Part shown: positions 1 to 32,728 of the stretch, piece by piece
How the letters are laid out: every line of letters begins with the position of its first letter
Numbering within the stretch: the stretch's first letter is position 1
IMG/VR virus record: IMGVR_UViG_3300045988_120863
Source: a virus
Direction: 5' to 3' (one strand)
DNA length: 32,728 nt
The notes under the pieces: model-generated
What the model saw: only the letters and a program-made list of their open reading frames with translations
Told to the model about the DNA's origin: nothing
The model's database searches: none
Translations under genes and position numbers: made by a program

Positions 1-55
1 GAAGTGCGTCCGAGGCCTTGCGACCTCTTTCGCACTTCACTATACAATCAACATA
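1..55. repeat. Terminal direct repeat, copy 1 (exact duplicate of 32674-32728); circular-assembly overlap
   Basis: gaagtgcgtccgaggccttgcgacctctttcgcacttcactatacaatcaacata is present at both window ends, 55/55 identical. Confidence 0.95.
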
Positions 56-68
56 GGCCCCTTGTCAA
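39..68 (-). promoter_or_regulatory. Sigma70-type promoter of the early operon (reads across the circular junction toward 32639)
   Basis: Minus strand reads TTGACA (68-63), then 18 nt, then TATAGT (44-39). It lies about 100 nt upstream (through the junction) of the first early gene. Confidence 0.5.
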
Positions 69-99
69 GTGATTTGCGAAAATTTTAGTAATTTATTTT

Positions 100-1131
100 T
101 CAAAGGCTGTTCATGCAGGCCTCGAACACCTCCGCCGCCGTGTGGAAATTGAATATCTTCCGGGGATAATTATTGATCCATTCCTCCGTTTTTTTCAGAG
201 TAGAGGCCGGAATAGTTGCAAAATCTGTCCCTTTCGGGTGCTTGCGGCGGATCATGCCGTTTTGTCGCTCGTTCGATCCTCTTTCCCATGAGCTATACGG
301 GTGGCAGTAATAGACCGTCGTCCGGGCACCTTTCCGCCGACAAGCCTTTTCCATGCCCGCGCAGTCGGCAAACTCCGGGCCATTGTCTACGGTGATCGAC
401 CGAAATACCTTGTAGAAAAGGGCGCCGTATTTGCGCTCGAGCGTGTTTAGGGCCTTTACCACGCTTTCGGTGGTGTTCGTCTTTATCGGGATCATAATTT
501 CATGGCGAGAGAGCCGCTCCGTGAGTACCAGCAAGCGTGGACGGCTCTTTTGTATGCCCTGTACGGTGTCCATTTCCCAATGCCCGAAAGTCTCTCGGGA
601 GTTGATCTCCTCCGGGCGCTGTTCAATGCTCAAGCCTTTAGGGGCCCGGGCCGCACGGACGCGGCGATAGCCCCTCTTTTTTGCCGTCTTATGAGGGAGG
701 TCTTTATTCGTTATCCCGAGGAAAAGGCCGAGGTCGATATAGCGATAGAGAGTGCGGACGGAAATCTCGGTATCGAATACGAGGCCCTTTGCCTTGATCT
801 CGCCGAGGGCGGCCTCCGGCGATCTGTTCCCGCCTTTGATGGCGGCCTCGAGGTATCGGGCGAGGCGGTGATCCTTGCCGATTTTGAGACCCGGCCCCTT
901 GTCCGGGTAGTGATCCTCGTACCGAGCTTGTGCAATATCGGGGATATAGCACTCCCGGTCTATGAGCTCGGTCGTGCGCTGAATACCGAGGCCGCGCTTG
1001 ATCTCCCGGTAGATCGTGGAGACATGGCGGCCCAACTCGTCGGCGATCCGCTGTTTCGACCACCCATCTTTGAGGCGTGTCTCGATAATAAGGCGCTCTC
1101 TCCAAGTCAAGTGCTGGTAGTTTTCTCCCAT
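100..1131 (-). CDS. IS30-family DDE transposase (343 aa)
   Basis: ATG at 1131 has GGAGGG 7 nt upstream; the track ORF starts 8 codons earlier. N-terminal HTH LTWRERLIIETRLKDGWSKQRIADELGRHVSTIYREIKRG. DDE contexts HWEMDTV, ITVDNGPEF and SSWERGSNERQNG are typical of IS30 transposases. Confidence 0.85.
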   Translation of the reverse strand: MGENYQHLTWRERLIIETRLKDGWSKQRIADELGRHVSTIYREIKRGLGIQRTTELIDRECYIPDIAQARYEDHYPDKGPGLKIGKDHRLARYLEAAIKGGNRSPEAALGEIKAKGLVFDTEISVRTLYRYIDLGLFLGITNKDLPHKTAKKRGYRRVRAARAPKGLSIEQRPEEINSRETFGHWEMDTVQGIQKSRPRLLVLTERLSRHEIMIPIKTNTTESVVKALNTLERKYGALFYKVFRSITVDNGPEFADCAGMEKACRRKGARTTVYYCHPYSSWERGSNERQNGMIRRKHPKGTDFATIPASTLKKTEEWINNYPRKIFNFHTAAEVFEACMNSL

Positions 1132-1150
1132 TTCCAAACCCTCCTGGTAA

Positions 1151-1188
1151 ATCAAAGCCCCGCCGCGGCCATGTAGACCGGGCGGGGC
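1151..1188 (-). terminator. Hairpin terminator after the RHH gene, directly abutting the transposase RBS
   Basis: Stem gccccgcc (1157-1164) pairs with ggcggggc (1181-1188). On the minus strand it is followed by TTTGAT, a weak U-tail. Confidence 0.45.
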
Positions 1189-1193
1189 GTGGT

Positions 1194-1385
1194 TTATTTC
1201 TGCAAAAACTCCTCTATCGCTCGTTTGATAATTTGAGCCTGGACGGCCCCCTCAGCGTCGCACTTTTCCCGAAATGCCGCCGCGAGGTCTTTCGGCACAC
1301 GGACGGAAATCACGTCATAGGCTTTTTGGTTGTATCTCGACTTTACCGCCGTCGAGGTCTTAGTCTTTCTCTTGCTTTCTTCCAC
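1194..1385 (-). CDS. Ribbon-helix-helix (Arc/CopG-like) DNA-binding protein, 63 aa
   Basis: GTG start with GAGGAGG 7 nt upstream. YDVISVRVPKDLAAAFREKC...IIKRAIEEFLQK fits a strand-helix-helix layout. Confidence 0.6.
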   Translation of the reverse strand: MEESKRKTKTSTAVKSRYNQKAYDVISVRVPKDLAAAFREKCDAEGAVQAQIIKRAIEEFLQK

Positions 1386-1537
1386 GTTTCCGCCTCCTCA
1401 CGTTGATAACGATAGAGCATACCGCGAGGGTGATACTCACTCCGCACAAAATATAAATGACTGTGTCCATGACGGTTTGACATTGAGCCCGTTTCATGTT
1501 ACTATGCAAGGGCGAGGGGGATTGCTCCCCCTGCCCT

Positions 1538-1663
1538 TTACTCGGTGAGCTTTTCTATCAGCAGTAGAATGGCAATCACGAGGTTTAGGATCGCGGTAAC
1601 AAGGTTTATGTAGCTGTCCGGCTCGGCCTTGTTGCCGCTTTTCTTTTTGCGTTTTTTGCTCAA
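1538..1663 (-). CDS. Small membrane peptide (41 aa), TTG start
   Basis: AGGAGGA (1671-1677) lies 7 nt upstream of TTG at 1663. Product is SKKRKKKSGNKAEPDSYINLVTAILNLVIAILLLIEKLTE: a basic N-terminus plus one TM helix. The longer track ORF would overlap the XRE gene. Confidence 0.35.
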   Translation of the reverse strand: MSKKRKKKSGNKAEPDSYINLVTAILNLVIAILLLIEKLTE

Positions 1664-1749
1664 TGCTTTATCCTCCTTTCGCTTATTATAATACCATACT
1701 GCTTGCAGTATGTCAATAGTTTTTTGCAAAAAATATCCGCCTCGGGAAA

Positions 1750-2010
1750 TCAATCCCGGGGCGGGTTTTTGTCTGCACCTATGAGCCAATCGGCGGAGAC
1801 GTGGAAAATTCTCGTCAGGACGAGGAGCTCGTAATCCGTCACGAGGCGAGAGCCGCTCTCGATCCGACTAACTGCGTCTTGTTCAATGATCGCGCCCTCT
1901 GTCTGCATTTTCGCCGCGAGGGCTGTTTGTGATAGGCGGGCCCGGAGGCGTAGCTCCCGGACGCGGTCGCCCGATACGTTCCCCTTGCCCTCAAATTGAA
2001 ATTTTCTCAC
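1750..2010 (-). CDS. XRE-family HTH transcriptional regulator (repressor-like), 86 aa
   Basis: HTH_3-type segment LSQTALAAKMQTEGAIIEQDAVSRIESGSRLVTDYELLVLTRIFHVSADWLIG. GTG start. Confidence 0.8.
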   Translation of the reverse strand: MRKFQFEGKGNVSGDRVRELRLRARLSQTALAAKMQTEGAIIEQDAVSRIESGSRLVTDYELLVLTRIFHVSADWLIGADKNPPRD

Positions 2011-2100
2011 TCGCCCGAGTTCCTCCTATGGTAATATCCAATATTCTAATTGACATTAACATATTTTCCTCGGGTTCTTATGGGAATACTCCATAGCTCG

Positions 2101-2131
2101 AAAAAATAAGGGCCGGAGTTTCCTCCGGCCC
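2101..2131 (-). terminator. Rho-independent terminator after the endolysin gene
   Basis: Stem gggccggag (2110-2118) pairs with ctccggccc (2123-2131) around a 4-nt loop. The minus strand then reads TTATTTTTT. Confidence 0.75.
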
Positions 2132-2138
2132 GCTCGGG

Positions 2139-2969
2139 TTATGCTTTCTCTCTGGCCTCGTGGTACATGACGGCCACGATTGCGGCCTTGAGGGTCTCCT
2201 TGCGGAGGTTGAGGTCGGTCGCGCATACCTCTTTCGGCGTCCCGCCGTTGACGGCGCCGGAGTCCAGCAAGGCCGCCGCGGCGCCTTTCCAGTATTCCGG
2301 GACGTCTTTCAAGTCCTTATAGACAGGGTTTTCCTCGTCGAGGACTTCTTTCACGGTCTGACGGATCAGGGCCTTTAATTCTTCGTTGCTCATGTCGATT
2401 TCCTCCTCATAGGTAACGTAGGGGATTTTCCCCCACTTTTTCCACTTCCGGGCGTTGTACCCGGATTTACTTCCGATATTTGCGACGGCGGTAATCTGTA
2501 CGCCGTTTTTCCATGCGGGCGTACACTCTACCGCGAGCCCGCCGCCGACATAAATTCCGATATGGCCCGTCGTCCACACCGCCGCCCCGGGCGCGATCCC
2601 GGAGAAATCGGTCGAGACGCCGGAACAAATCGAGATCATACCGTCCGCCGAAATGTCTGGGCAGGCGCCCGCGAGTACCTGGTTCATGGTCGGATAGGTG
2701 GCGCCGCCGTAGGTTCTGGCGCTATCCCCGCTCCACCCCCACAAGATCGCCTTAATGAGGCCCACGCAATCGAAATAAAACGCCTTGGGGTTTCCGGCGT
2801 AGCGGCGAGCGGCGTCAATCCACCCCTTTTCTGTATTCTTTGCGTAGGCGTTCGCCGCCCGGGTGAGACTCGCGTCGGTGATCGGCGAGCCGAGGCCGCC
2901 CCAAATATACGAGGTCTTATAGTCCCGGGCGATAGAGAGCGCCTTTGCGATAAAGTCGGCCGAGTTCAT
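2139..2969 (-). CDS. Endolysin, NlpC/P60-type cell-wall hydrolase with a C-terminal extra domain
   Basis: SYIWGG, FDCVGLIK (catalytic Cys context) and GHIGIYVG (His context). It is the last gene of the lysis cassette. RBS GAGGAGGG. Confidence 0.8.
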   Translation of the reverse strand: MNSADFIAKALSIARDYKTSYIWGGLGSPITDASLTRAANAYAKNTEKGWIDAARRYAGNPKAFYFDCVGLIKAILWGWSGDSARTYGGATYPTMNQVLAGACPDISADGMISICSGVSTDFSGIAPGAAVWTTGHIGIYVGGGLAVECTPAWKNGVQITAVANIGSKSGYNARKWKKWGKIPYVTYEEEIDMSNEELKALIRQTVKEVLDEENPVYKDLKDVPEYWKGAAAALLDSGAVNGGTPKEVCATDLNLRKETLKAAIVAVMYHEAREKA

Positions 2970-3191
2970 TTACTTTCCCTCCTCAGTGGTCTGAGTCCCG
3001 TCCGTGGTGCTCTGTTCGCGCTGGGTCTGAGTGCCGAAATAGAACGCGATCACGACGGCGTACACGGTCATAAAGTCCTGCGCGATTTTGTTCGTAACGG
3101 CGAGGTAGGCAAAAACCGCCGTGAGGGTGATCGTGACAATGGATTTCACGGAGAGGAGGTTTGCGATACGCTTGATGATCTTTTCATTCAT
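2970..3191 (-). CDS. Holin (73 aa, two TM helices, charged C-tail)
   Basis: Internal ATG at 3191 with GAAAGGA upstream. Product MNEKIIKRIANLLSVKSIVTITLTAVFAYLAVTNKIAQDFMTVYAVVIAFYFG... Sits directly upstream of the endolysin. The track ORF's N-terminal extension is Arg/Pro-rich and overlaps the previous gene. Confidence 0.6.
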   Translation of the reverse strand: MNEKIIKRIANLLSVKSIVTITLTAVFAYLAVTNKIAQDFMTVYAVVIAFYFGTQTQREQSTTDGTQTTEEGK

Positions 3192-3211
3192 GGTGTAGTC
3201 CTTTCCCCGGG

Positions 3212-3511
3212 TCAAATCCCGGTGTCCCCTAAATCTTTTGTTGTTGGTTCTTCCTTGTCGTCCTTTTTGAGGACGGTTTTCAGGCATAGCAAGAGGAGCT
3301 CGCCGCCGAAAAAGCCGAGGATCACGCCCAGGAGGGCCGCGGGGTCGTTTCCCGTCCTGGACATGATACGGAGCGCGTACCAGCTCGCCCCGGAGGCGGC
3401 GGCCACACAATAGGCGATTGTCACCTTTGCGAATAGGTGAGGAATTTTCCCGATCCGCTTCACGAGCCGGGAGAGACGAGAGGGCGTTTTCGCCTCATAT
3501 TTCCCGCTCAT
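3212..3511 (-). CDS. Holin-like membrane protein (99 aa, two TM helices)
   Basis: Hydrophobic helices LFAKVTIAYCVAAASGASWYAL and AALLGVILGFFGGELLLLCL followed by an acidic/basic tail. Located in the lysis cassette. Confidence 0.5.
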   Translation of the reverse strand: MSGKYEAKTPSRLSRLVKRIGKIPHLFAKVTIAYCVAAASGASWYALRIMSRTGNDPAALLGVILGFFGGELLLLCLKTVLKKDDKEEPTTKDLGDTGI

Positions 3512-3825
3512 AGCCCCACCCGGGCCAATATGTAGCCCACCACCGCCGCGGTGACGAGGAGGATCACTTTCTCGACGAGGGTTTTCCAGCGGTTCCCCGG
3601 CTCCGCTTCGATCTTCTCCACCTTGCCGGAGAGATCGGAGAGGTCGGTTTTAACCTCCTTGATCGCCTCCGTTTGGTGCTTCTGCTCTTTCGCCATAACC
3701 TCGACCGAGGTCGCGAGGCGGTTTATTGCCTCCGTGCTTTTCTCGAGGTGGTCGAGCCTGTGCGTGTTCGATTTACTGCGGGCCTCCGTCTCGGCCAGCT
3801 TTACGGCCATTTCTTCGCCCGTCAT
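3508..3825 (-). CDS. XhlA-like lysis-associated protein (coiled coil plus C-terminal TM)
   Basis: A long heptad-like region ends in RWKTLVEKVILLVTAAVVGYILARVGL. The architecture and its position upstream of the holins match the PBSX-type XhlA family. Confidence 0.6.
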   Translation of the reverse strand: MTGEEMAVKLAETEARSKSNTHRLDHLEKSTEAINRLATSVEVMAKEQKHQTEAIKEVKTDLSDLSGKVEKIEAEPGNRWKTLVEKVILLVTAAVVGYILARVGL

Positions 3826-4613
3826 GCCGTCACCCCCTCGGCGGTCTTGATCGCCGCTAAAATATCCGCCTTTAGTGTTAAGCCCGTGAGCGCGATCCCG
3901 TTCTCTGAGGCGTACTCCTTGAGCTCCGCGACGGTCATAGCGTCCAGGTCTTTAACCTCCGTCCACCCGTAAACCCCGGGCTCCCATACGTTATTGTCGA
4001 GATCGGACGTCCATTTCTTTTCAGAGTGGGAGACCTTGGCCCCGGCGCTATATGCGTCATGGGCCCCGATGGGCTGGGCCCACTTCGGCCACTCTTCGGA
4101 GGGATCGGCGATCTCGGCCCACAAGCTCGCCGCGGCGTCCGGCGTCCAATTCTCCTGTGAGGTGTGAGCCTGGACGCAACGATAGAGGCGGCCCGCGTGG
4201 AGGCGGATCGCTCCGGCCTTATATGCAACGGGATAGGCCCATTCGGCAAACTGCGAGGCGTTCTCCGCCGCCGTGGTGTCGTCGATCTGTCCCGTCTCGG
4301 CCATAACGGTAAAGACGATAGAGGCGGCCACGGTTGCTTGTGCCATGTCCTCGACCTCCGCCGCGAGCTGTGGCGTGTGATCGGTCTCGACAAGGACGCT
4401 CTCGACCTCATACCACCGATAAAAGAGCCCGTCGCCGGACTCCTCGCGGAGGAGATCGCCGACGATCACCTCGTAGACGCTTACCTTGTCCTCCTGGGTC
4501 TGCGTGAATGTGACGAGGTCGCCCGTGAGGCCGATCTCGGCGTCGGACTTGATACGGAGATAGCGGAGGCTTTTCCCGTTCCGTCTCGTGGTTCCGATCA
4601 TGTACTCGAGCAT
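3822..4613 (-). CDS. Phage protein with two CBM5/12-like carbohydrate-binding repeats and a C-terminal HeH/SAP-like motif
   Basis: YKAGAIRLHAGRLYRCVQAHTSQENWTPDAAASLWAEI and YSAGAKVSHSEKKWTSDLDNNVWEPGVYGWTEV resemble chitin-binding type-3 repeats. The C-terminus reads MTVAELKEYASENGIALTGLTLKADILAAIK. RBS AAGGAG. Confidence 0.5.
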   Translation of the reverse strand: MLEYMIGTTRRNGKSLRYLRIKSDAEIGLTGDLVTFTQTQEDKVSVYEVIVGDLLREESGDGLFYRWYEVESVLVETDHTPQLAAEVEDMAQATVAASIVFTVMAETGQIDDTTAAENASQFAEWAYPVAYKAGAIRLHAGRLYRCVQAHTSQENWTPDAAASLWAEIADPSEEWPKWAQPIGAHDAYSAGAKVSHSEKKWTSDLDNNVWEPGVYGWTEVKDLDAMTVAELKEYASENGIALTGLTLKADILAAIKTAEGVTA

Positions 4614-5668
4614 AATATTCTCTCCTTTCGCGACGCCTCCCGGACGACGCTCTTTATTGTTTTCTCGATAGGCCGGACGTGCTTATCGTAGAGGCTCCAC
4701 CCGGCACAATGCTTTAGCTGTCCCGACCGTGATAAAATTCCCCGTGCCTGGATCGGCGCTATTTTGCGGTGGGCCGCGATCCGTTTCCGGGCCCGGGTGC
4801 ATTGTCTTTTCAGGCGGAGGAGGTTTTTCTTGCGGATCAGAGTTAGGCCCCGTTTGTAGCGGTAGCCGACCGCGTTCACCATGCGTTTGCGGGTGTTGTA
4901 GAGTTGCCAATTCTCCTTTAGGCGGAGGCCCATTCTCCCCAAAAACTCCATGATCGACCGGATCGCCCGATGGAGTTTCTTTTTGTTGTGTCCGAAAATA
5001 GTCAGGTTGTCAATATAACGGACGTAATGACGGACGCCGTCTCCGAGCTTTTCCCGGATATAGTGGTCGAGCGGCTCGAGGACTGCGTTCGCGAGCCATT
5101 GAGAAATGTAAAACCCGATCTTGATACCGTCCTTGATGATCCGCCAAATGAGGCCGAGAAAAGCCTCGTCCTTGATCTTTCGCCGGAGAAACCGCATAAC
5201 CTCTCGCGGAGAGAGGGAGGGATAAAATTTCTTTATGTCCAGCTCGGCGGCGTACTTTGTGCCTTTCTGGTCTTTCTCGAGCCACTTCTCAATAGCTTTC
5301 CGGGCGCGGTGCGGGCCCCGGCCTGGTATGCTCCCGCAACAATAGAAATCCATTCCGCGCATGAGGACAGGGGCCAGGACTTGAACGATCATGTGGTGAA
5401 CGTATTGATCCGGCCATAGGGCGGGCTCGTTGATCTCGCGCCATTTCCCCGCCGTGGAGTCGTAGCGAGGAAATGTCCGGGGCTTTTTCGGGTGGAAATC
5501 CCGTAGGAGTTCGCAAAGCTCGTCCGCCCGGGCCTCTTTCGTGCTCTCCACCCATTGAGCCGTTTTATTCTTCTTCCGGGGCTCATTTACTGCCTCGATT
5601 GCTAAAAGGGCGTTCTCACGGGTGCAAAGTTTCTCCATGAGATACCCGATCCGTTTTGTATTTTTCAT
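4598..5668 (-). CDS. DGR reverse transcriptase (356 aa)
   Basis: Motif A is AAELDIKKFYPSL. The DGR-typical motif is GFYISQWLANAVLEPLD. Motif C is VRYIDNLTIFG. Start set at ATG 5668 (MKNTKRIGYLMEKL...), because the upstream part of the track ORF is the translated TR. Confidence 0.85.
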   Translation of the reverse strand: MKNTKRIGYLMEKLCTRENALLAIEAVNEPRKKNKTAQWVESTKEARADELCELLRDFHPKKPRTFPRYDSTAGKWREINEPALWPDQYVHHMIVQVLAPVLMRGMDFYCCGSIPGRGPHRARKAIEKWLEKDQKGTKYAAELDIKKFYPSLSPREVMRFLRRKIKDEAFLGLIWRIIKDGIKIGFYISQWLANAVLEPLDHYIREKLGDGVRHYVRYIDNLTIFGHNKKKLHRAIRSIMEFLGRMGLRLKENWQLYNTRKRMVNAVGYRYKRGLTLIRKKNLLRLKRQCTRARKRIAAHRKIAPIQARGILSRSGQLKHCAGWSLYDKHVRPIEKTIKSVVREASRKERILCSST

Positions 5669-5817
5669 GCTGTGGTCGCCTTTCGGACGTAAATAATTTT
5701 TCTTATTCACCTCACGGCCTTTCAAATCCATATCGGGCTTACTTGGCCGTGTCCCTGCGGCGAAATTTTCACCGAGCGGTGAGGAAAAGACTACGCGGAG
5801 TTTCGGGTATGGAATAA

Positions 5818-5960
5818 GTAGCCGCGAGCCGAGGTTGGAGTTCGTGCTGGAGGGCGCGTAGTAGCCGTTGAGGTAGAACGGCCCCGCGTTGGTGCCGTTG
5901 TTGTAGTTGCCGCCCACATAGAGCCCACGGACGCCGGAGTTATAGTTGCAATAATCCGGG
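5818..5960 (-). repeat. DGR template repeat (TR), 143 bp
   Basis: 133/143 identical to 6077-6219 at a constant offset of 259. All 10 mismatches are at T on the plus strand, which is A on the coding strand. TR reads as an Asn(AAC)-rich version of the VR peptide. Confidence 0.9.
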
Positions 5961-6022
5961 CCCGGAAAACGGAGACCCCGGTCGCATGGCGTAGCCAGTC
6001 CCTAAATTGCGAGGTTTTTTAT

Positions 6023-6063
6023 GGGGGTTGCGACCCCCAAACCCCCGGGCGGCTTACGCCGCC
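6023..6063 (-). promoter_or_regulatory. Two GC-rich hairpins immediately 3' of VR (candidate DGR target-recognition structure)
   Basis: ggcggc-ttac-gccgcc (6048-6063) has the target stop codon in its loop. gggggt-tgcg-accccc lies at 6023-6038. Neither has a U-tail on either strand. Confidence 0.5.
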
Positions 6064-8108
6064 GAGGGGAGTTTTTGAAGCCGCGAGCCGAGGTCGGAGT
6101 ACGTGCTGGAGGGCGCGTAGCAGCCGTAGAGGTAGAACGGCCCCGCGAGGGTGCCGTCGTAGTAGTTGCCGCCCACATAGAGCCCACGGACGCCGGAGTT
6201 ATAGTAGCAATAATCCGGGACGTAGGTCGTGTCGGAGCCGCCGACCGTGTTCGGGTAGATAAAGGAATTATCGGAGGAGTCATGCCCCCACGCCTTGATC
6301 CACCCGCCCGAGGTCGCTCGCGTGTTGCTTCTTACGGTGGCGCCCGTGCCGTTGTAGGTATCTGCGAAATTCGCCGGGTTGTTGTAGGTGCAAATATTCG
6401 CGCCGGAGAAAATAATTCCGTCGCGCCACTCGAGCACATTTCCCCACCAATTTTCAATATTGCGGTACTGGATCGCGACGTTTCCGTCCGTGCCCGCGGC
6501 GCGGCCCGTGTGGTAGGTCATGGAGTCGGTTCCGCCCGTATTGATAACGGAGCCGGAGTCCACGTTTCCGCGCCCGATCTTGGTTTGTCCGTTCCAGTTC
6601 GCGAACTCGACGAGGTAGAGATACCAAAGCGTGAGTTGCAAGGCGAAATCCGCTTGATAATATCCGGTTCCGAGGGCCTTAATCCCGCTCCTGAACGAGG
6701 AGAGGGAGGTATTCACTTTCGGAGACTGGCCCGTCCTGGACTGATAGGAGGAATTGCACTCGTAGCGGCCAATATAGACGACGTCGCGCTCTCCGACGCC
6801 GTCACCGCGGTCTCGGTGGGCCGGGGAGACCTGGAAACCGTCTGTTGCCTGGTCTGCGATCTGCACCTTAAAGGGCGAGTGCGTCACCTTTACCCAAAAT
6901 TTCGGGATTTTTACGAGGGTGTTATTTCCGTCCGTTACCTTTGTCATGCCCGACCACGGGAGGCAGTTATCAAAGGGAGAGCTCCCGGCCCCGGTTCCCA
7001 CCGCGGGGACGGGATCAGCAAAGAGGGCCGAGTCGTCCGTCCTGGTGAGGGCCGTCGTGCTCGAGCCGTCCCAGGTGACGCCGTAAATACGGACAAAGGC
7101 CGCCGTCACGTTGCAAGTCTTATTCGCAGGGGCGTTGTGGTTGGTGCCCGCGGAGACCTTGATCGTGATAACCGCGGAGCCGCTCTTTTGATTGACGCCG
7201 GAAACCGTGACTTTCGTCCCGCTCACGCTGACGGTGGCGACGCTGGTATTACTGGACTCGGCGGAGATCGTACCGTTACCCGCCCGCGTGACGTTGATCG
7301 TCCCGGTCGGGTTCGAGCTGTCCAGCGTGAGGGAGGTCGGAGAAATGCTCAGACTGCCCGCGGCCTTGCCGATAGTCCAGTTTACGGACTTCGCCGCCGT
7401 GGTTCCGTCGCTCCACTCATAGTTAGAGGTCGGAGTAAAGGTCGCGGCGTAGGTTCCGGCGTTCGTGGCCGACGTCGTCCCGCCGAGCGTCAGTTGTGCC
7501 GAATTGTAGTTGTTCCAGTTCGGCGAGAGCGAGGAGCCCGTATAGGTGAGACTCCCGCTCTGGCTCGGGACGGTGGAGATCACGGCGCGGGAAACGGTGA
7601 CGGGCGTCGTCACCGCCGCCGAGACGCCGTTTTCCGTATATTTCACGGTGACGCTCTGACTCCCGAGGGAGGTAAAGGTCGAGGGGCTCGTCGTGTAGCC
7701 CGTTACTGCCGCCGTGCTCCCGTCCGTATAGGTGGCCTTTACGACCATTCCCGCCGCGGAAAACGCCTCTCCGTAGCGATACGCCGTCTTTGTGGGCGGC
7801 GTGGTGACTGCAATCGAGACGAGTTTCGGGATCACGGTCACGGCCTGGGAGGCTGTGACACTCTTTCCGCCCTCGGTATATCGGATCGTGACACTCGTCA
7901 CGCCGTCCAGCAAAGGCCCGCTCGGCTCCACGGCGTAGCCCGTGGCGGCCAGCTTGGCGCCGTTGGAATAGGTCGCCGTTACCACCATTCCCGCGGGGTC
8001 GAAACTCTCGCCGGAGAGGTATCTCGTTTTCGTGGGCGGCGTCGTAACGGCAATCGAGACGAGCTTGATCCCGCCTCCGCCGCCGACCATGTTATACACG
8101 TTTCCCAT
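6054..8108 (-). CDS. DGR target: tail fibre / receptor-binding protein (684 aa) with Ig-like repeats and a C-terminal variable region
   Basis: It carries two Big_3-like repeats (KLVSIAVTTPPTKT.Y..GE.F..AGMVV.ATY). The C-terminus GGNYYDGTLAGPFYLYGCYAPSSTYSDLGSRL is encoded by VR. RBS GGAGGG. Located at the distal end of the tail module. Confidence 0.85.
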   Translation of the reverse strand: MGNVYNMVGGGGGIKLVSIAVTTPPTKTRYLSGESFDPAGMVVTATYSNGAKLAATGYAVEPSGPLLDGVTSVTIRYTEGGKSVTASQAVTVIPKLVSIAVTTPPTKTAYRYGEAFSAAGMVVKATYTDGSTAAVTGYTTSPSTFTSLGSQSVTVKYTENGVSAAVTTPVTVSRAVISTVPSQSGSLTYTGSSLSPNWNNYNSAQLTLGGTTSATNAGTYAATFTPTSNYEWSDGTTAAKSVNWTIGKAAGSLSISPTSLTLDSSNPTGTINVTRAGNGTISAESSNTSVATVSVSGTKVTVSGVNQKSGSAVITIKVSAGTNHNAPANKTCNVTAAFVRIYGVTWDGSSTTALTRTDDSALFADPVPAVGTGAGSSPFDNCLPWSGMTKVTDGNNTLVKIPKFWVKVTHSPFKVQIADQATDGFQVSPAHRDRGDGVGERDVVYIGRYECNSSYQSRTGQSPKVNTSLSSFRSGIKALGTGYYQADFALQLTLWYLYLVEFANWNGQTKIGRGNVDSGSVINTGGTDSMTYHTGRAAGTDGNVAIQYRNIENWWGNVLEWRDGIIFSGANICTYNNPANFADTYNGTGATVRSNTRATSGGWIKAWGHDSSDNSFIYPNTVGGSDTTYVPDYCYYNSGVRGLYVGGNYYDGTLAGPFYLYGCYAPSSTYSDLGSRLQKLPSAA
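6077..6219 (-). repeat. DGR variable repeat (VR), 143 bp, 3' end of the fibre gene
   Basis: See TR. VR differs from TR only at TR-adenine positions. In TR coordinates these are 5819, 5836, 5842, 5862, 5869, 5889, 5890, 5899, 5902 and 5947. Confidence 0.9.
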
Positions 8109-16130: not shown

Positions 16131-16173
16131 ACGGCGAGGCTCCTTTCGTGTATGGGAATACTCAATAAATTAC

Positions 16174-16202
16174 TTGATATTCCCATAAAGGCGGGTTATA
16201 CT
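16174..16202 (+). promoter_or_regulatory. Sigma70-type promoter of the lipoprotein moron
   Basis: TTGATA (16174-16179), then 17 nt, then TATACT (16197-16202). It is flanked and overlapped by the inverted repeat tatgggaata (16151-16160) / tattcccata (16178-16187). Confidence 0.6.
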
Positions 16203-16250
16203 TGCCCTATGAAATGCAAATATTTTCGCTTTATGTTGGAGGTGTTCAGT

Positions 16251-17018
16251 ATGAGGAAACTTTCTTTTTTGGCGCTTGTGCTTGCTATGTGCTTATGCCT
16301 CGGAGCGTGTTCCAGCGGCGAGGCACCCTCCGTGCCAGAGGAGCCGACGACCGCCGTCCCGGAATATTCGTTCATAAACTCCGACCGATACGTCCAAAAC
16401 GGGACGACCGGGATCGGGTATCGCGTGGCAATCGGCGACGGCGCGACCGAGGAGGAAATGAGGGCCGTTTTCGGGGAACTCTGTTCCGCCGACTCCTACG
16501 ATCTGCACACGGTATGGTTTTACGGCCTCCCGAGCGACGTCGAGGACGTCGGCTCGTTTTCCGTAGGTATGCTCGAGGAAAAATCTCGCGGCGCGGAGCC
16601 TGTCTTTACGCCCTGCACCTATGACGCCGATACAATAGCGGCTTTGAGGGAGAGAGGAGCGGAGATCGAACAATCCGACGAGGCCCGGAGTATTCCGCGC
16701 CCGAGCATACAACAAGAGGCCCTCGTCGAGGAAAACCGTTTCTATCCCGTAGACGGCGCGATTTTCACCACCGCCGCCGACGAGAACGGCCTCGCCGATA
16801 CCCCGTTTTGGGTTCGCGGAGAGATCGTCTCCCGCTCCGACGTCGGAGGTTATGATACAATCCAGCTCTCCACGGAGTACGGGGCCCTCTATATTTCCGC
16901 CGTCTCGGTCAATATTCCCGAGATTGACGAGGGGGCGGAAATAACCGTCTATTTCGTCTATTCCGGCTTTTCTGACGCCCTGGGCGGGCCCTGCGGCGTG
17001 TATGCCTATCACGAATAA
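16251..17018 (+). CDS. Lipoprotein (255 aa), antisense moron within the tail module
   Basis: This is the only plus-strand gene. GGAGG lies 8 nt upstream of the ATG. The signal peptide MRKLSFLALVLAMCLCLGAC carries an L-G-A-C lipobox. It has its own promoter and terminator. Confidence 0.75.
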   Translation: MRKLSFLALVLAMCLCLGACSSGEAPSVPEEPTTAVPEYSFINSDRYVQNGTTGIGYRVAIGDGATEEEMRAVFGELCSADSYDLHTVWFYGLPSDVEDVGSFSVGMLEEKSRGAEPVFTPCTYDADTIAALRERGAEIEQSDEARSIPRPSIQQEALVEENRFYPVDGAIFTTAADENGLADTPFWVRGEIVSRSDVGGYDTIQLSTEYGALYISAVSVNIPEIDEGAEITVYFVYSGFSDALGGPCGVYAYHE

Positions 17019-28582: not shown

Positions 28583-28758
28583 TCCGCCGCCACCTCCTCG
28601 AGGAGCTCAAAGGTACACTCGCGGGCGATCTGCGTCCAGCGGGCGGCCCACTTTCTCGCGGCAGAGATCACGGCCTCGTATTTCCGCGGGCCCGTGACCT
28701 CGACAGCGCCATAGGCCGGGTGAGATACTTTCCAACGATATACGGGCTTTTTATTCAT
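28579..28758 (-). CDS. Hypothetical protein (59 aa), not in the supplied ORF track
   Basis: ATG at 28758 with AGGAGG upstream. ATGA overlaps at both ends. Product MNKKPVYRWKVSHPAYGAVEVTGPRKYEAVISAARKWAARWTQIARECTFELLEEVAAE. Confidence 0.5.
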   Translation of the reverse strand: MNKKPVYRWKVSHPAYGAVEVTGPRKYEAVISAARKWAARWTQIARECTFELLEEVAAE

Positions 28759-29135
28759 AAGTCCGCCTCCTTTGTGATCCCGTGTGTTGGCTCCTCGTAA
28801 CTTCCATATACGAGACTCGAATAATACCCGACCATGTCAATTTCAAGTGCCCGGTCGTCGATATAATAGTCGGCGTAGACCTTGCGGCAGTTGTTTCCAT
28901 ATCGGGAGACACATTCCGGGAGATTGTCGTTTACTGCGTCGAACTCGAGGCCGTGATCCTCGCACCATTTCACCGCCGCCGCCAAATCGTCTCCAATTCG
29001 ACACGTCCATAGAATGAGACGGTCTCCGGCTCGGCGGATTCGCTTCGCAAAGTCCAGCACGTCAGGCTTCGGCGCTCCTATGCGCGGGTATTCATCAAAA
29101 CAAAGGGTTCCGTCAAAGTCGATTGCGTAAATCAT
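28755..29135 (-). CDS. HAD-superfamily hydrolase-like protein (126 aa)
   Basis: N-terminal motif I is YAIDFDGTL. A C-terminal YIDD supplies an acidic motif. Confidence 0.5.
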   Translation of the reverse strand: MIYAIDFDGTLCFDEYPRIGAPKPDVLDFAKRIRRAGDRLILWTCRIGDDLAAAVKWCEDHGLEFDAVNDNLPECVSRYGNNCRKVYADYYIDDRALEIDMVGYYSSLVYGSYEEPTHGITKEADL

Positions 29136-30744: not shown

Positions 30745-30995
30745 TTTGTTGCTTTTCCGCCGATGGTGACGAGGAGGATCGGGGCCGGAGTGTCCGGCCA
30801 GTCGTCCACGTCAGCGGTGATCCGCTCGACGATGTTATTTCCGCACACCTCGACGCACCGCGTTTTTTCGAGTTCCTCGACCGTGCCTCCGGCCACCGCC
30901 TCAGAAATATCGGCTCCGAGGTGGTGGATCACAAAGAGGCGTTCTTTCGGTAGGAGCAGGGCCATGAGGCCGGATAGGGTGAGCTTGTTATTCAA
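30741..30995 (-). CDS. Hypothetical protein (84 aa; start uncertain)
   Basis: TTG at 30995 has AGGAGG 9 nt upstream. The alternative ATG at 31013 has no RBS. Confidence 0.35.
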   Translation of the reverse strand: MNNKLTLSGLMALLLPKERLFVIHHLGADISEAVAGGTVEELEKTRCVEVCGNNIVERITADVDDWPDTPAPILLVTIGGKATK

Positions 30996-31881
30996 TTTCG
31001 TATTCCTCCTCATAGTCTGCAAGATCGGAGAACTCCATTTGTCCCGGGAGTACCCCGTCCTCCATCCACCAATGAAAACAGTCAAGCCCGGTTCGCCAGT
31101 CTGTCGGGAGATTTCGGCGGAGGCGTTCTTTAATCATGTTGTCAAACGCCCGAATATACATTTTTTCGTATTGTGGATAACGGAAAAACTCTTTTTGTCG
31201 TCCCGCTGTTCCGGCCATAGGACACCCAATGCACCCGACCCGTGAATAACCGCACTCGTAGAGGGGATTTATTTCGATCTTTTCGGCCTCGATATAATCC
31301 CAAACGTCCGAGTCTTTCCAATCGACGATAGGGTTACAAATCCGCTTCGCCTTTAGGGTGCAAGTCTCAAATAAACGGCGGCGGTCGTCGTTGTCGTTAT
31401 TCAATATCACTTTTTTGGAGATGTCCGAGGGCATGGTCTCATATATTCCGCGGCTATTTTTCCGCTTGACCGACTCGGCCCAGCGAACGCCCGTTGTGAT
31501 AAAGCGTCCGCTCCCGCCGCGTTCTTTTAATACAGAACAGCAATAGCGAACGAGCCGGGTCGGTGGCATGAGCTTTTGCGGGATCAGGTTCCACATGGAG
31601 GTACGCTTTCCTTTGTAGACGGGCATATTTACGGCGCATTTTATTCCCTTGTCCTCGAAGTGCTGGAATTTCTTGCGGATAAAATAGACCGTCTCGGGCG
31701 CGTCCGCGGTTGTGTGATTGTGCATAACTTCAAACGGTATTCCCGCCCGCTCGGCGAGGTGAGTACAAATCGAGCTGTCTTTTCCGCCTGAGTCAGTAAT
31801 TACGAGGGGCGTCTTGTAAACTTGGAGGGCCATTTCCGACGCGGCGCGGAGGCGTTGGATTGCGGTTTGCTCTAAATCCAT
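30988..31881 (-). CDS. PAPS-reductase-family (ATP-PPase fold) protein, 297 aa
   Basis: Start at ATG 31881 (MDLEQTAIQRL). The P-loop-like motif is VITDSGGKDSS. CNPIVDWKDSDVWDYI and a Cys cluster GCIGCPMAG are also present. Confidence 0.65.
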   Translation of the reverse strand: MDLEQTAIQRLRAASEMALQVYKTPLVITDSGGKDSSICTHLAERAGIPFEVMHNHTTADAPETVYFIRKKFQHFEDKGIKCAVNMPVYKGKRTSMWNLIPQKLMPPTRLVRYCCSVLKERGGSGRFITTGVRWAESVKRKNSRGIYETMPSDISKKVILNNDNDDRRRLFETCTLKAKRICNPIVDWKDSDVWDYIEAEKIEINPLYECGYSRVGCIGCPMAGTAGRQKEFFRYPQYEKMYIRAFDNMIKERLRRNLPTDWRTGLDCFHWWMEDGVLPGQMEFSDLADYEEEYEIE

Positions 31882-32108
31882 GTGCCCGAGCCTCCTTTTT
31901 CGGCCCAGCGCACGACCCCGCGAGGAGTAACGCAAACGTCGTCCTCGGCCTCTTGCTTTAGCCACTCGTCCCACATAATCACCGTTTCGGGATCAGGCAT
32001 TTTCAGTTTATAAGAGCACCCTTTCGCCTCGAGGGCGTCGTCCTGGATCATGCAAAGGAAATCCGCTAAATTCTGCGGGCTTTGTGTCACGATCTGAAAA
32101 TTTGTCAT
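31872..32108 (-). CDS. Hypothetical protein (78 aa)
   Basis: ATG at 32108 forms an ATGA overlap with the upstream gene. The track's N-terminal extension is Arg/Pro-rich. Confidence 0.45.
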   Translation of the reverse strand: MTNFQIVTQSPQNLADFLCMIQDDALEAKGCSYKLKMPDPETVIMWDEWLKQEAEDDVCVTPRGVVRWAEKGGSGTWI

Positions 32109-32384: not shown

Positions 32385-32639
32385 TTATATGGCCGCCTGT
32401 CGTTTGCCGCGGGACTTCTGAAAATTCCGCTCGGCGGTGATCTGCGCGACCTTTGCGCTATACACGCGGAAACCGTACTTGTCTACGGCCCCGGTATAAC
32501 CGTTCCTCAATTCGCGGTAGATCGTCGCGGGGTGGACGCCGATTTTCTCGGCTATGAGGGCCACCGGGGCCCGGTCATTGTGGAGCCGCTCAATAGTCGC
32601 CCGATCTTCCGGCCCGATGTATCGGAGTTTTTGGCCCAT
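32385..32639 (-). CDS. Stand-alone IS30-type HTH (HTH_38-like) DNA-binding protein, 84 aa
   Basis: ATG at 32639 with AAAGGAGG upstream. IGPEDRATIERLHNDRAPVALIAEKIGVHPATIYRELRNG aligns with residues of the transposase N-terminus at about 14/41 identities, including the TIYRE core. Confidence 0.7.
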   Translation of the reverse strand: MGQKLRYIGPEDRATIERLHNDRAPVALIAEKIGVHPATIYRELRNGYTGAVDKYGFRVYSAKVAQITAERNFQKSRGKRQAAI

Positions 32640-32660: not shown

Positions 32661-32713
32661 AAAATAAAAAAGTGAAGTGCGTCCGAGGCCTTGCGACCTC
32701 TTTCGCACTTCAC
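32661..32713 (-). terminator. Strong rho-independent terminator downstream of the transposase gene (spans the assembly repeat)
   Basis: On the minus strand: GTGAAGTGCG-aaa-GAGGTC-gcaa-GGCCTC-gga-CGCACTTCAC followed by TTTTTTATTTT. Confidence 0.7.
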
Positions 32714-32728
32714 TATACAATCAACATA
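32674..32728. repeat. Terminal direct repeat, copy 2 (exact duplicate of 1-55)
   Basis: 55/55 identity with the window start. Confidence 0.95.

Follow-up and report, generated by a model that had tools for sequence, protein, structure and literature searches.

A gut phage that is very probably one IS30-like transposable unit, with likely oriented insertion upstream of host promoters

Phages that integrate by means of an IS30-family transposase form a class that is already published (Lagaffe in 2018, IScream in 2025), and we have compared with it the virus record IMGVR_UViG_3300045988_120863 of IMG/VR. This DNA of 32,728 nucleotides, analysed at its full length, is called the window below, and the gene in question is its IS30-family DDE transposase. 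The IScream phages (Wirbel, Hickey et al., Nature 2025; PMC12823448) carry an outward full-length IS30 gene at one end and a truncated IS30 gene without the catalytic part at the other. They are prophages of gut Clostridia, have no conventional integrase, lie in varied host contexts and possess transposases of ~52% identity on average; 1,780 candidates were found in a gut virus catalogue, with experimental validation in Blautia hansenii (PMC12823448). The Nature paper and its preprint make no mention of target sites, direct repeats, target-site duplications or promoters (PMC12823448), and 'inverted repeat' occurs in the preprint only in the generic definition of an insertion sequence (IS). No follow-up to this class was found in our literature searches. 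For Faecalibacterium phage FP_Lagaffe (Cornuault et al. 2018; PMC5883640; NC_047911), the integrase was assigned to the IS30 family, and flanking direct repeats, a diversity-generating retroelement (DGR) and a cos site were described (PMC5883640).

Among insertion sequences, a circle with abutted ends is the insertion substrate in the IS3, IS30, IS21 and IS256 families, joint promoters are known from IS2, IS911 and IS30-type elements, and the N-terminal fragment of the IS30 transposase binds the inner inverted repeats (IRs), overlapping the promoter (PMC3299598). By the account given in PMC12823448, the IS30 transposase is able to replace the lambda integrase (Kiss 2003). ORF3 of the Spiroplasma plectrovirus SpV1-R8A2B is also a phage IS30-family transposase presumed to be integrative; these plectroviruses are small filamentous phages whose DNA is single-stranded, and the enzyme is very distant (26% identity to that of the window). 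In Staphylococcus, the large mobile element ICE6013 has an IS30-like DDE enzyme in place of a tyrosine or serine recombinase, and it excises as a circle with a short coupling sequence, but it is a conjugative element and no virus, with 3-bp repeats and an AT-rich palindromic target rather than promoters. This parallel was drawn in the first-pass annotation, made from the letters of the window alone; it is reasonable as an analogy, with Lagaffe (PMC5883640) and IScream (PMC12823448) as closer precedents.

The window is a circular assembly whose bases 1-55 recur at 32674-32728. As this 55-bp terminal redundancy is an assembly artefact, the true genome is circular and 32,673 bp long. Nearly every gene is on the minus strand. 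A Pfam scan, which covered all 129 six-frame open reading frames (ORFs) of at least 70 aa and for which 25 of 28 families were listed (the scope of all Pfam negatives below), detected portal, terminase, capsid, protease, tail, HNH and reverse-transcriptase domains. The features on which the argument turns are as follows.

100-1131, minus strand: IS30-family DDE transposase, 343 aa (ATG at 1131, stop at 100-102), pointing outward at the right end of the prophage
56-81, minus strand: right end (IRR), with tip GGGGCC at 56-61, 20-bp IR core at 62-81 and -35 hexamer TTGACA at 63-68
54-55: spacer of 2 nt, TA in this window, differing between otherwise identical circular contigs
28-53, minus strand: left end (IRL), with tip TGTTGA at 48-53, IR core at 28-47 and -10 hexamer TATAGT at 39-44
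39-68, minus strand: joint promoter TTGACA-18-TATAGT, 11 of 12 consensus matches, formed only by the abutted ends
32661-32713, minus strand: leader hairpin at 32672-32713 (equal to 1-40) with abutting U-run at 32661-32671; -29.4 kcal/mol, z -6.8
32385-32639, minus strand: protein of 84 aa with an HTH_38 domain only (Pfam E 2.7e-10), the first gene inside the left end and the first after the joint promoter
32674-32728: terminal redundancy, identical to 1-55

The transposase is intact. Its helix-turn-helix (HTH) domain matches Pfam HTH_38 (E 8e-13, 48 bits, cutoff 27) and its catalytic domain rve (E 9e-8, 32.7 bits, cutoff 32.6), and the NCBIfam IS30 equivalog NF033563 scores 230 bits against a cutoff of 80 over profile positions 1-267 of 267. 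Catalysis is assigned to D188, D249 and E283, and 33 residues separate the second D from the E. This DD(33)E spacing is the signature of the IS30 family in ISfinder. Among the families listed, rve occurs in the transposase gene alone, and Phage_integrase, Resolvase and Recombinase are absent. The first-pass annotation, which had taken this enzyme for an intact IS30-type transposase and the only recombinase of the genome, is borne out on both counts, and the profile search brought up no conventional integrase among the listed families.

To find integrated copies, we have looked up the exact transposase, the ribbon-helix-helix (RHH) protein encoded next to it, the small HTH protein and the neighbour of the latter in public assemblies, and a metagenome scan with the left end added further junctions. 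The look-ups returned circular contigs of ~32 kb as well as long bacterial contigs with a prophage. In the transposase orientation, every integrated copy matches the circle to ...TTTTCGCAAATCACTTGACAAGGGGCC and then gives way to unrelated host DNA; the homology stops exactly at ...CTTGACAAGGGGCC, which is base 56, 44 bp past the transposase stop. The other prophage end begins at TGTTGATTGTATAGTG, where host DNA switches to phage at TGTTGATTGTATAGTGAAGTGCG, and the left end is base 53. All the unique junctions, 14 right and 28 left, break at these same two bases. The exact transposase gene is located at the extreme prophage end in at least 14 differing host contexts, and it adjoins the prophage-host junction in the loci L001, L003, L007 and L021-L030. 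In four elements with both junctions available (L036/L003, L039/L007, L012 and L065), the phage is bracketed by exact 15-bp direct repeats of host DNA; no unoccupied copy of these four reconstructed target sites was found among all fetched loci. Overall, lysogens carry the phage opened exactly at the joint, between 15-bp duplications, at many chromosomal sites. The search for an integrated state that had been proposed with the first-pass annotation has in this way defined the ends, the IRs and the target duplication in bacterial contigs.

These features place the window in the IScream class. The transposase points outward at a distance below 1 kb from the prophage end (its stop is 44 bp from the right end), an inward IS30-related gene without the catalytic part is present at the other end as the 84-aa HTH_38-only protein, and structural and lysis genes (portal, terminase, capsid, protease and tail were seen) come without a tyrosine or serine integrase.

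In the circular form, the two ends abut with a short spacer. At assembly level, this spacer is always 2 nt in 15 circular contigs, as CA in six, AA in three, TA in two, TT in two, CT in one and CC in one. A dinucleotide that varies in this way would be expected of circles formed again and again out of integrated copies, with capture of flanking bases. Abutted ends with a 2-nt spacer match the minicircle joint of IS30, IS3, IS21 and IS256 elements, and several hallmarks of the IS30 family are shared with the window: an HTH plus DD(33)E transposase, bipartite ends (core for binding inside, tip for cleavage outside), a terminal IR of ~20-30 bp (here at the phage ends only) and, at assembly level, a circle with the IRs abutted ~2 bp apart. 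The window differs from IS30 in its 31-kb phage cargo, in the DNA-binding fragment being a separate gene, and in a joint promoter that points into the cargo (the HTH-only gene and the early genes) instead of into the transposase gene.

Further observations on ends and junctions were made along the way. In a diverged lineage (L072-L076 and the IMG/VR loci L100-L112, with a left end CGCAAATGC...), one joint apparently has a 3-nt spacer, and the spacer length may not be strictly fixed across the clade. Two deletion derivatives keep both ends and the 15-bp duplication. One (L012:9914-12399) is 2,486 bp long with the transposase reduced to its last ~290 nt, and the other (L065, reverse strand 1232-6801) is 5,570 bp long, retains the transposase, RHH and XRE genes and has lost the structural genes. 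They may be decaying prophages or elements mobilised in trans. In three pairs of loci (L027 and L030; L011 and L036; L020 and L039), one insertion site is shared across samples, which suggests either lysogenic strains shared between people or hot-spot promoters.

The two ends contain an imperfect IR of 20 bp (16 of 20 matches) at 28-47 and 62-81, with the arms 14 nt apart. In the whole genome, the consensus 20-mer occurs at these two positions and at 32701-32720 only, against a chance expectation of 0.00; the third occurrence belongs to the duplicate copy of the left end (32701-32726) produced by the assembly overlap. Pairs that would bracket the 1.1-kb transposase gene are at chance level. 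The first-pass annotation had likewise seen no terminal IRs around this gene when comparing 56-99 with the reverse complement of 1132-1193; its conclusion stands, though the pair it compared was the wrong one and the real IRs lie at the joint. Both arms are downstream of the transposase gene because they are the ends of the whole phage. Since there is a single IR pair, with none on the inner side of either IS30-related gene, the phage should be one unit with ~31 kb of cargo and no composite. As far as sequence can tell, we regard it as very likely that the whole 32,673-bp phage is a single IS30-like transposable unit and that the IS30-family transposase is its integrase.

The IScream paper frames these phages differently, as something like a composite transposon in which an intact and a decayed IS30 flank the phage as cargo. 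For the window this appears improbable. Speaking for it are the IS30-related HTH_38 gene of the left end and the full transposase of the right, and Wirbel et al. use the same analogy in describing truncated and variable inward IS30 genes (PMC12823448). However, a composite needs IRs on both sides of each IS, whereas the IR 20-mer is present once per phage end and absent both 5' of the transposase gene and 3' of the HTH-only gene. Nor does the HTH-only gene look like a decaying pseudogene. It starts 87 nt inside the left end, its product shares 34% identity with transposase residues 1-47, and, judged by this alignment, it is a paralogue of the transposase's N-terminal DNA-binding domain; it corresponds to the 'truncated inward IS30' of IScream. 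A search with the 84-aa protein found close relatives on short contigs only. In five aligned diverged phages, a core of ~83 aa is kept at 35-42% identity in intact proteins (82-122 aa as annotated), each gene having its own ribosome-binding site (RBS) and promoter. This conservation favours function rather than decay, and the single unit remains our preferred reading.

The abutted ends also create a predicted promoter by joining the -35 hexamer of the right end to the -10 hexamer of the left end. At the integrated left junctions (n = 31), the host DNA offers at the joint spacing a -35 match of only 1-4 of 6 at best. Behind the promoter lies the leader hairpin, whose 5' arm is the inner left IR, and it is followed in order by the U-run, an AGGAGG RBS and the HTH-only gene. 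Transcription that comes in from upstream (for the circle as the transposase message, for the prophage from the host) yields RNA with the full hairpin; a transcript starting ~7 nt after the -10 hexamer has a weaker stem of -18.8 kcal/mol, 5 nt off the U-run. We infer that the hairpin would terminate the transposase message of the circle and, in the prophage, host-derived transcription, and that it would insulate the early operon from outside transcription while the joint promoter reads through it. The first-pass annotation had noted a strong terminator after the transposase gene. The hairpin is indeed there, but it belongs to the left end beyond the joint and is 3' of the gene in the circular form only.

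This layout is kept in Lagaffe, nd12, nd4, MT835543 and Dulem virus 34, the transposases of which are 46-52% identical to that of the window. In each, the right end supplies the -35 hexamer and the left end the -10 hexamer, with 16-18 nt between them, and a hairpin, a T-run and the HTH-only gene follow the joint. Lagaffe has the same order of modules as the window (HTH regulators, transposase, joint, HTH protein) and a joint of the same design, with 25-bp IRs, TTGACT-16-TAATAT, hairpin and T-run. It is a 48-kb myovirus-type phage of Faecalibacterium and Blautia without nucleotide similarity to the window in the phage body, and its IR tips are complementary (TTTTCC/GGAAAA) whereas those of the window are not. 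The identity to the window's transposase is 51% for Lagaffe and 44-65% for the joint transposases of IMG/VR, while it drops to 31-35% for passenger IS30 elements in phages.

We have aligned the 28 unique left flanks outward from the junction, position 1 being the base that adjoins the phage. The bases C-T-T-G-A are found at positions 26-30 in 21, 25, 24, 24 and 16 of the 28 flanks, respectively, TAnAAT follows at positions 50-55, and positions 18-22 are A/T-rich. Such a pattern is that of a sigma-70/sigma-A promoter which has a spacer of 17 nt and is directed away from the phage. TTG stands at the fixed index, 27-29 nt from the left end, in 19 of the 28 sites (background 0.023, binomial P 6e-25), while neither TTG at this index nor a good promoter was found in any of the 14 right flanks. 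Since the pattern is absent from the right flanks, insertion is oriented. The host -35 is 26 bp from the left end and 11 bp from the right end; as the hexamer begins 26 nt from the left end, the 15-bp duplication lies 11-26 bp upstream of the -35.

The same register can be seen in more distant relatives. An IMG/VR scan with the HTH-only alignment gave 303 relatives, 80 of which were retrieved, and in 45 of these 80 an IS30 transposase of 44-65% identity to that of the window is directly upstream. In 21 diverged integrated loci, where the definition of the ends is good to ~2 nt, the -35 of the best promoter is at index 26 in 11, 27 in four and 28 in two (17/21). Based on these alignments, we consider it rather likely that the IS30-type integrase, in the window and more widely in the IScream/Lagaffe clade, targets promoters: insertion would be mediated by the joint, in one orientation, with a 15-bp duplication 11-26 bp upstream of a sigma-A -35, and coupled with a joint promoter that exists in the circle only.

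It could be argued instead that insertion is random and that selection afterwards retains sites which spare genes, without an intrinsic target preference. Intergenic insertions are expected to be less harmful, and a minority of sites do lack the motif. But selection would not fix the distance to one base (index 26, 19/28 sites) or the orientation (0/14 right flanks), nor would it give the same register with transposases that are only 44-56% identical, so that we hold this explanation to be improbable as well. With regard to how promoters might be recognised, the match of the transposase HTH to Sigma70_r4_2 is just below the threshold (24.4 bits vs 25.7), a suggestive lead for reading of the -35 box and no evidence of it. 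The idea that the target mimics the right IR was considered and put aside. CTTGACA and A-rich upstream DNA are common to both, but G stands at position 18 of the IR and is found there in none of the targets, and the cleavage geometry also differs; it is speculation only.

Insertion upstream of promoters has been described for TnGBS, ISLre2 and ISKra4, Mutator-like elements which insert 15-17 bp upstream and were called unique in this respect (Guerillot et al. 2014; PMC3942029). The TnGBS type and the window share the promoter-upstream targeting and also the use of a transposase in place of an integrase by a large mobile element. They differ in the enzyme, which belongs to the unrelated Mutator superfamily (p-MULT) in TnGBS, ISLre2 and ISKra4 and to IS30 in the window, and in the distance (15-17 bp vs 11/26 bp with a 15-bp duplication). 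Moreover, these three are conjugative elements or IS and no phages. The distinction between a single unit and a composite, the circle-joint promoter and the oriented promoter-upstream insertion are apparently unreported for the phage class, being found neither in the class papers (2018, 2025) nor in our literature searches.

Two other explanations have very little chance. In the first, the transposase gene would be a passenger IS30 insertion and another factor would integrate the phage. Passenger IS30 elements do exist in phage records, such as phiPV83 and bIL311/IS983, at 31-35% identity to the transposase. In the window, however, neither IRs nor a duplication surround the gene, and no 1.1-1.2-kb unit bounded by them was found. 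The prophage boundary is 44 bp from the transposase stop at every site, no second recombinase is among the Pfam families listed, and both the position of the gene and the module order are conserved in diverged phages, the relatives with 44-65% identical transposases retaining the gene at the same locus. The proposal in the first-pass annotation that the enzyme serves as the phage integrase, and is not an ordinary passenger, gains support from its position at the prophage end, the sole IR pair and the 15-bp duplications. In the second, a Mu-like mode of replication by transposition with headful packaging from integrated copies, the DDE chemistry and the many insertion sites would fit, but the joint of the circular contigs is precise at 2 nt and their ends are free of variable host DNA, the HNH endonuclease and large terminase would be typical of cos packaging (Lagaffe was shown with a cos site), MuB-like ATPase and Mu-transposase domains are absent among the families listed, and the duplication is 15 bp against the 5 bp of Mu-like phages.

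Several points weigh against the single-unit and promoter-targeting readings. The target duplication of the IS30 family is typically 2-3 bp, and a duplication this short was expected where 15 bp is observed. The two ends lack complementarity over their outer 6-7 nt (GGGGCC vs TGTTGA). The joint promoter has a spacer of 18 nt vs the optimal 17, and its transcript retains the -18.8 kcal/mol stem, which it would have to pass without termination. About one fifth of the left junctions are without an in-register promoter (L053, L062, L077 and L078 are the exceptions), and survivor bias could be behind the intergenic enrichment; here the single-base register, the orientation and the conservation across lineages favour enzyme specificity. 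Formation of the circle, as read from the joint, would be compatible with copy-out or with excision, and the evidence comes entirely from the sequence of metagenome assemblies.

If the phage is a single IS30-like unit, a cycle can be proposed as follows. The transposase would bind the 20-bp inner IR cores and cut at the outer tips, and both ends would be transferred to the target with a 15-bp stagger. Upon induction, the circle would be remade when strand transfer joins one end to a position 2 nt beyond the other end, which would explain the variable spacer. In the circle only, the right-end -35 and the left-end -10 would form a strong promoter, from which the HTH-only paralogue and the early genes in the same direction would be expressed. 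Once the phage is integrated, this promoter would lose its -35, and the hairpin and U-run of the left end would shield the phage from transcription that enters from outside. The probable binding sites of the HTH-only protein are the IR cores, with which both hexamers overlap; like the N-terminal fragment of the IS30 transposase, this protein would thereby regulate the joint promoter or the access of the transposase. The transposase itself would be supplied at a low level through read-through from the XRE/RHH region.

The region upstream of the transposase gene contains the following features.

1139-1189, minus strand: RBS AGGAGGG at 1139-1145, GC-rich hairpin at 1157-1189 and UUUGAUUU, which ends the RHH gene
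1194-1385, minus strand: RHH protein gene, 63 aa (Pfam scan)
1716-1688, minus strand: promoter TTGACA-17-TATTAT (promoter scan), the nearest minus-strand site upstream of the transposase
1750-2010, minus strand: XRE regulator gene (Pfam scan)
1194-2010, minus strand: upstream control module of XRE, promoter and RHH, in the same gene order in Lagaffe

The transposase RBS comes 11 nt after the hairpin and UUUGAUUU, and a folding energy of -35.1 kcal/mol (z -3.5) was obtained for the 79-nt stretch from the end of the RHH gene to the transposase start. No promoter-like site turned up between the two genes in the promoter scan, and this layout leaves the transposase no space for a promoter of its own. 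Read-through out of the XRE/RHH module is, from the arrangement, a plausible source of the enzyme, at a low level. The XRE and RHH neighbours, the RBS next to the RHH hairpin and the missing space for an own promoter are all as the first-pass annotation had described them. In the same region, a plus-strand promoter-like site (TTGACA-17-TACTAT with TG, 1477-1505) faces the minus-strand promoter at 1716-1688 and is followed by a plus-strand terminator-like hairpin at 1735-1766. An antisense RNA of ~250 nt could span the XRE/RHH/transposase control region here (window 1477-1766).

Elsewhere in the genome, the window contains a complete DGR on the minus strand (4598-8108), and two genes with assignable domains are found in the early region.

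4598-5917, minus strand: DGR reverse transcriptase (Pfam RVT_1)
5820-5960, minus strand: DGR template repeat, 141 nt
6079-6219, minus strand: DGR variable repeat, 141 nt, at the 3' end of a Big_3 tail-fibre-like gene (6054-8108)
28755-29135, minus strand: BT0820-family HAD phosphatase, sub-threshold (98 bits vs cutoff 165), early region
30988-31974, minus strand: PAPS-reductase-domain protein (E 4e-22), early region

The two DGR repeats are 94% identical, and each of the 9 differences replaces an A of the template by some other base in the variable repeat. Several related contigs have the PAPS-reductase gene in split or fused form. The lone convincing plus-strand gene (16152-17018), inside the tail module, encodes 288 aa, with a signal peptide (…CLGACSS) of the lipoprotein type, and resembles a moron or a gene for lysogenic conversion.

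As to the host, the source samples are all gut metagenomes. Two close loci in a scan of genome contigs carry the left-end gene, with an identity of 98% for Firmicutes bacterium CAG:124 and of 90% for an isolate of Lawsonibacter (Oscillospiraceae, class Clostridia), and sporulation genes are present in the host DNA flanking the prophages. Searches of the GenBank phage collection, both distant and near at the nucleotide level, matched fragments of the transposase gene only and nothing of the phage body. Exact copies of the 63-aa RHH protein are recorded in 11,435 assembly blocks, those of the transposase in 134; the phage lineage, or at least its RHH module, appears to be very common in human gut metagenomes.

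Overall, the base-pair ends confirm that an abundant human-gut phage integrates by IS30-type transposition, and the composite-transposon picture is corrected to that of a single unit. The rules found here (a target duplication of 15 bp, a joint of 2 nt and a distance of 26 bp from the insertion to a downstream -35) would allow exact calls of prophage boundaries, and they could explain lysogeny across host families without an att site. A compact, promoter-targeting integrase system is suggested. If promoter targeting is true, the universality of promoters would explain both the att-site-free integration and the reported cross-family host range, and, through a promoter formed in the circle alone, the early operon could sense the state of the genome, integrated or free. 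Promoter targeting in an IS30 clade would then be a convergence with the Mutator-like elements.

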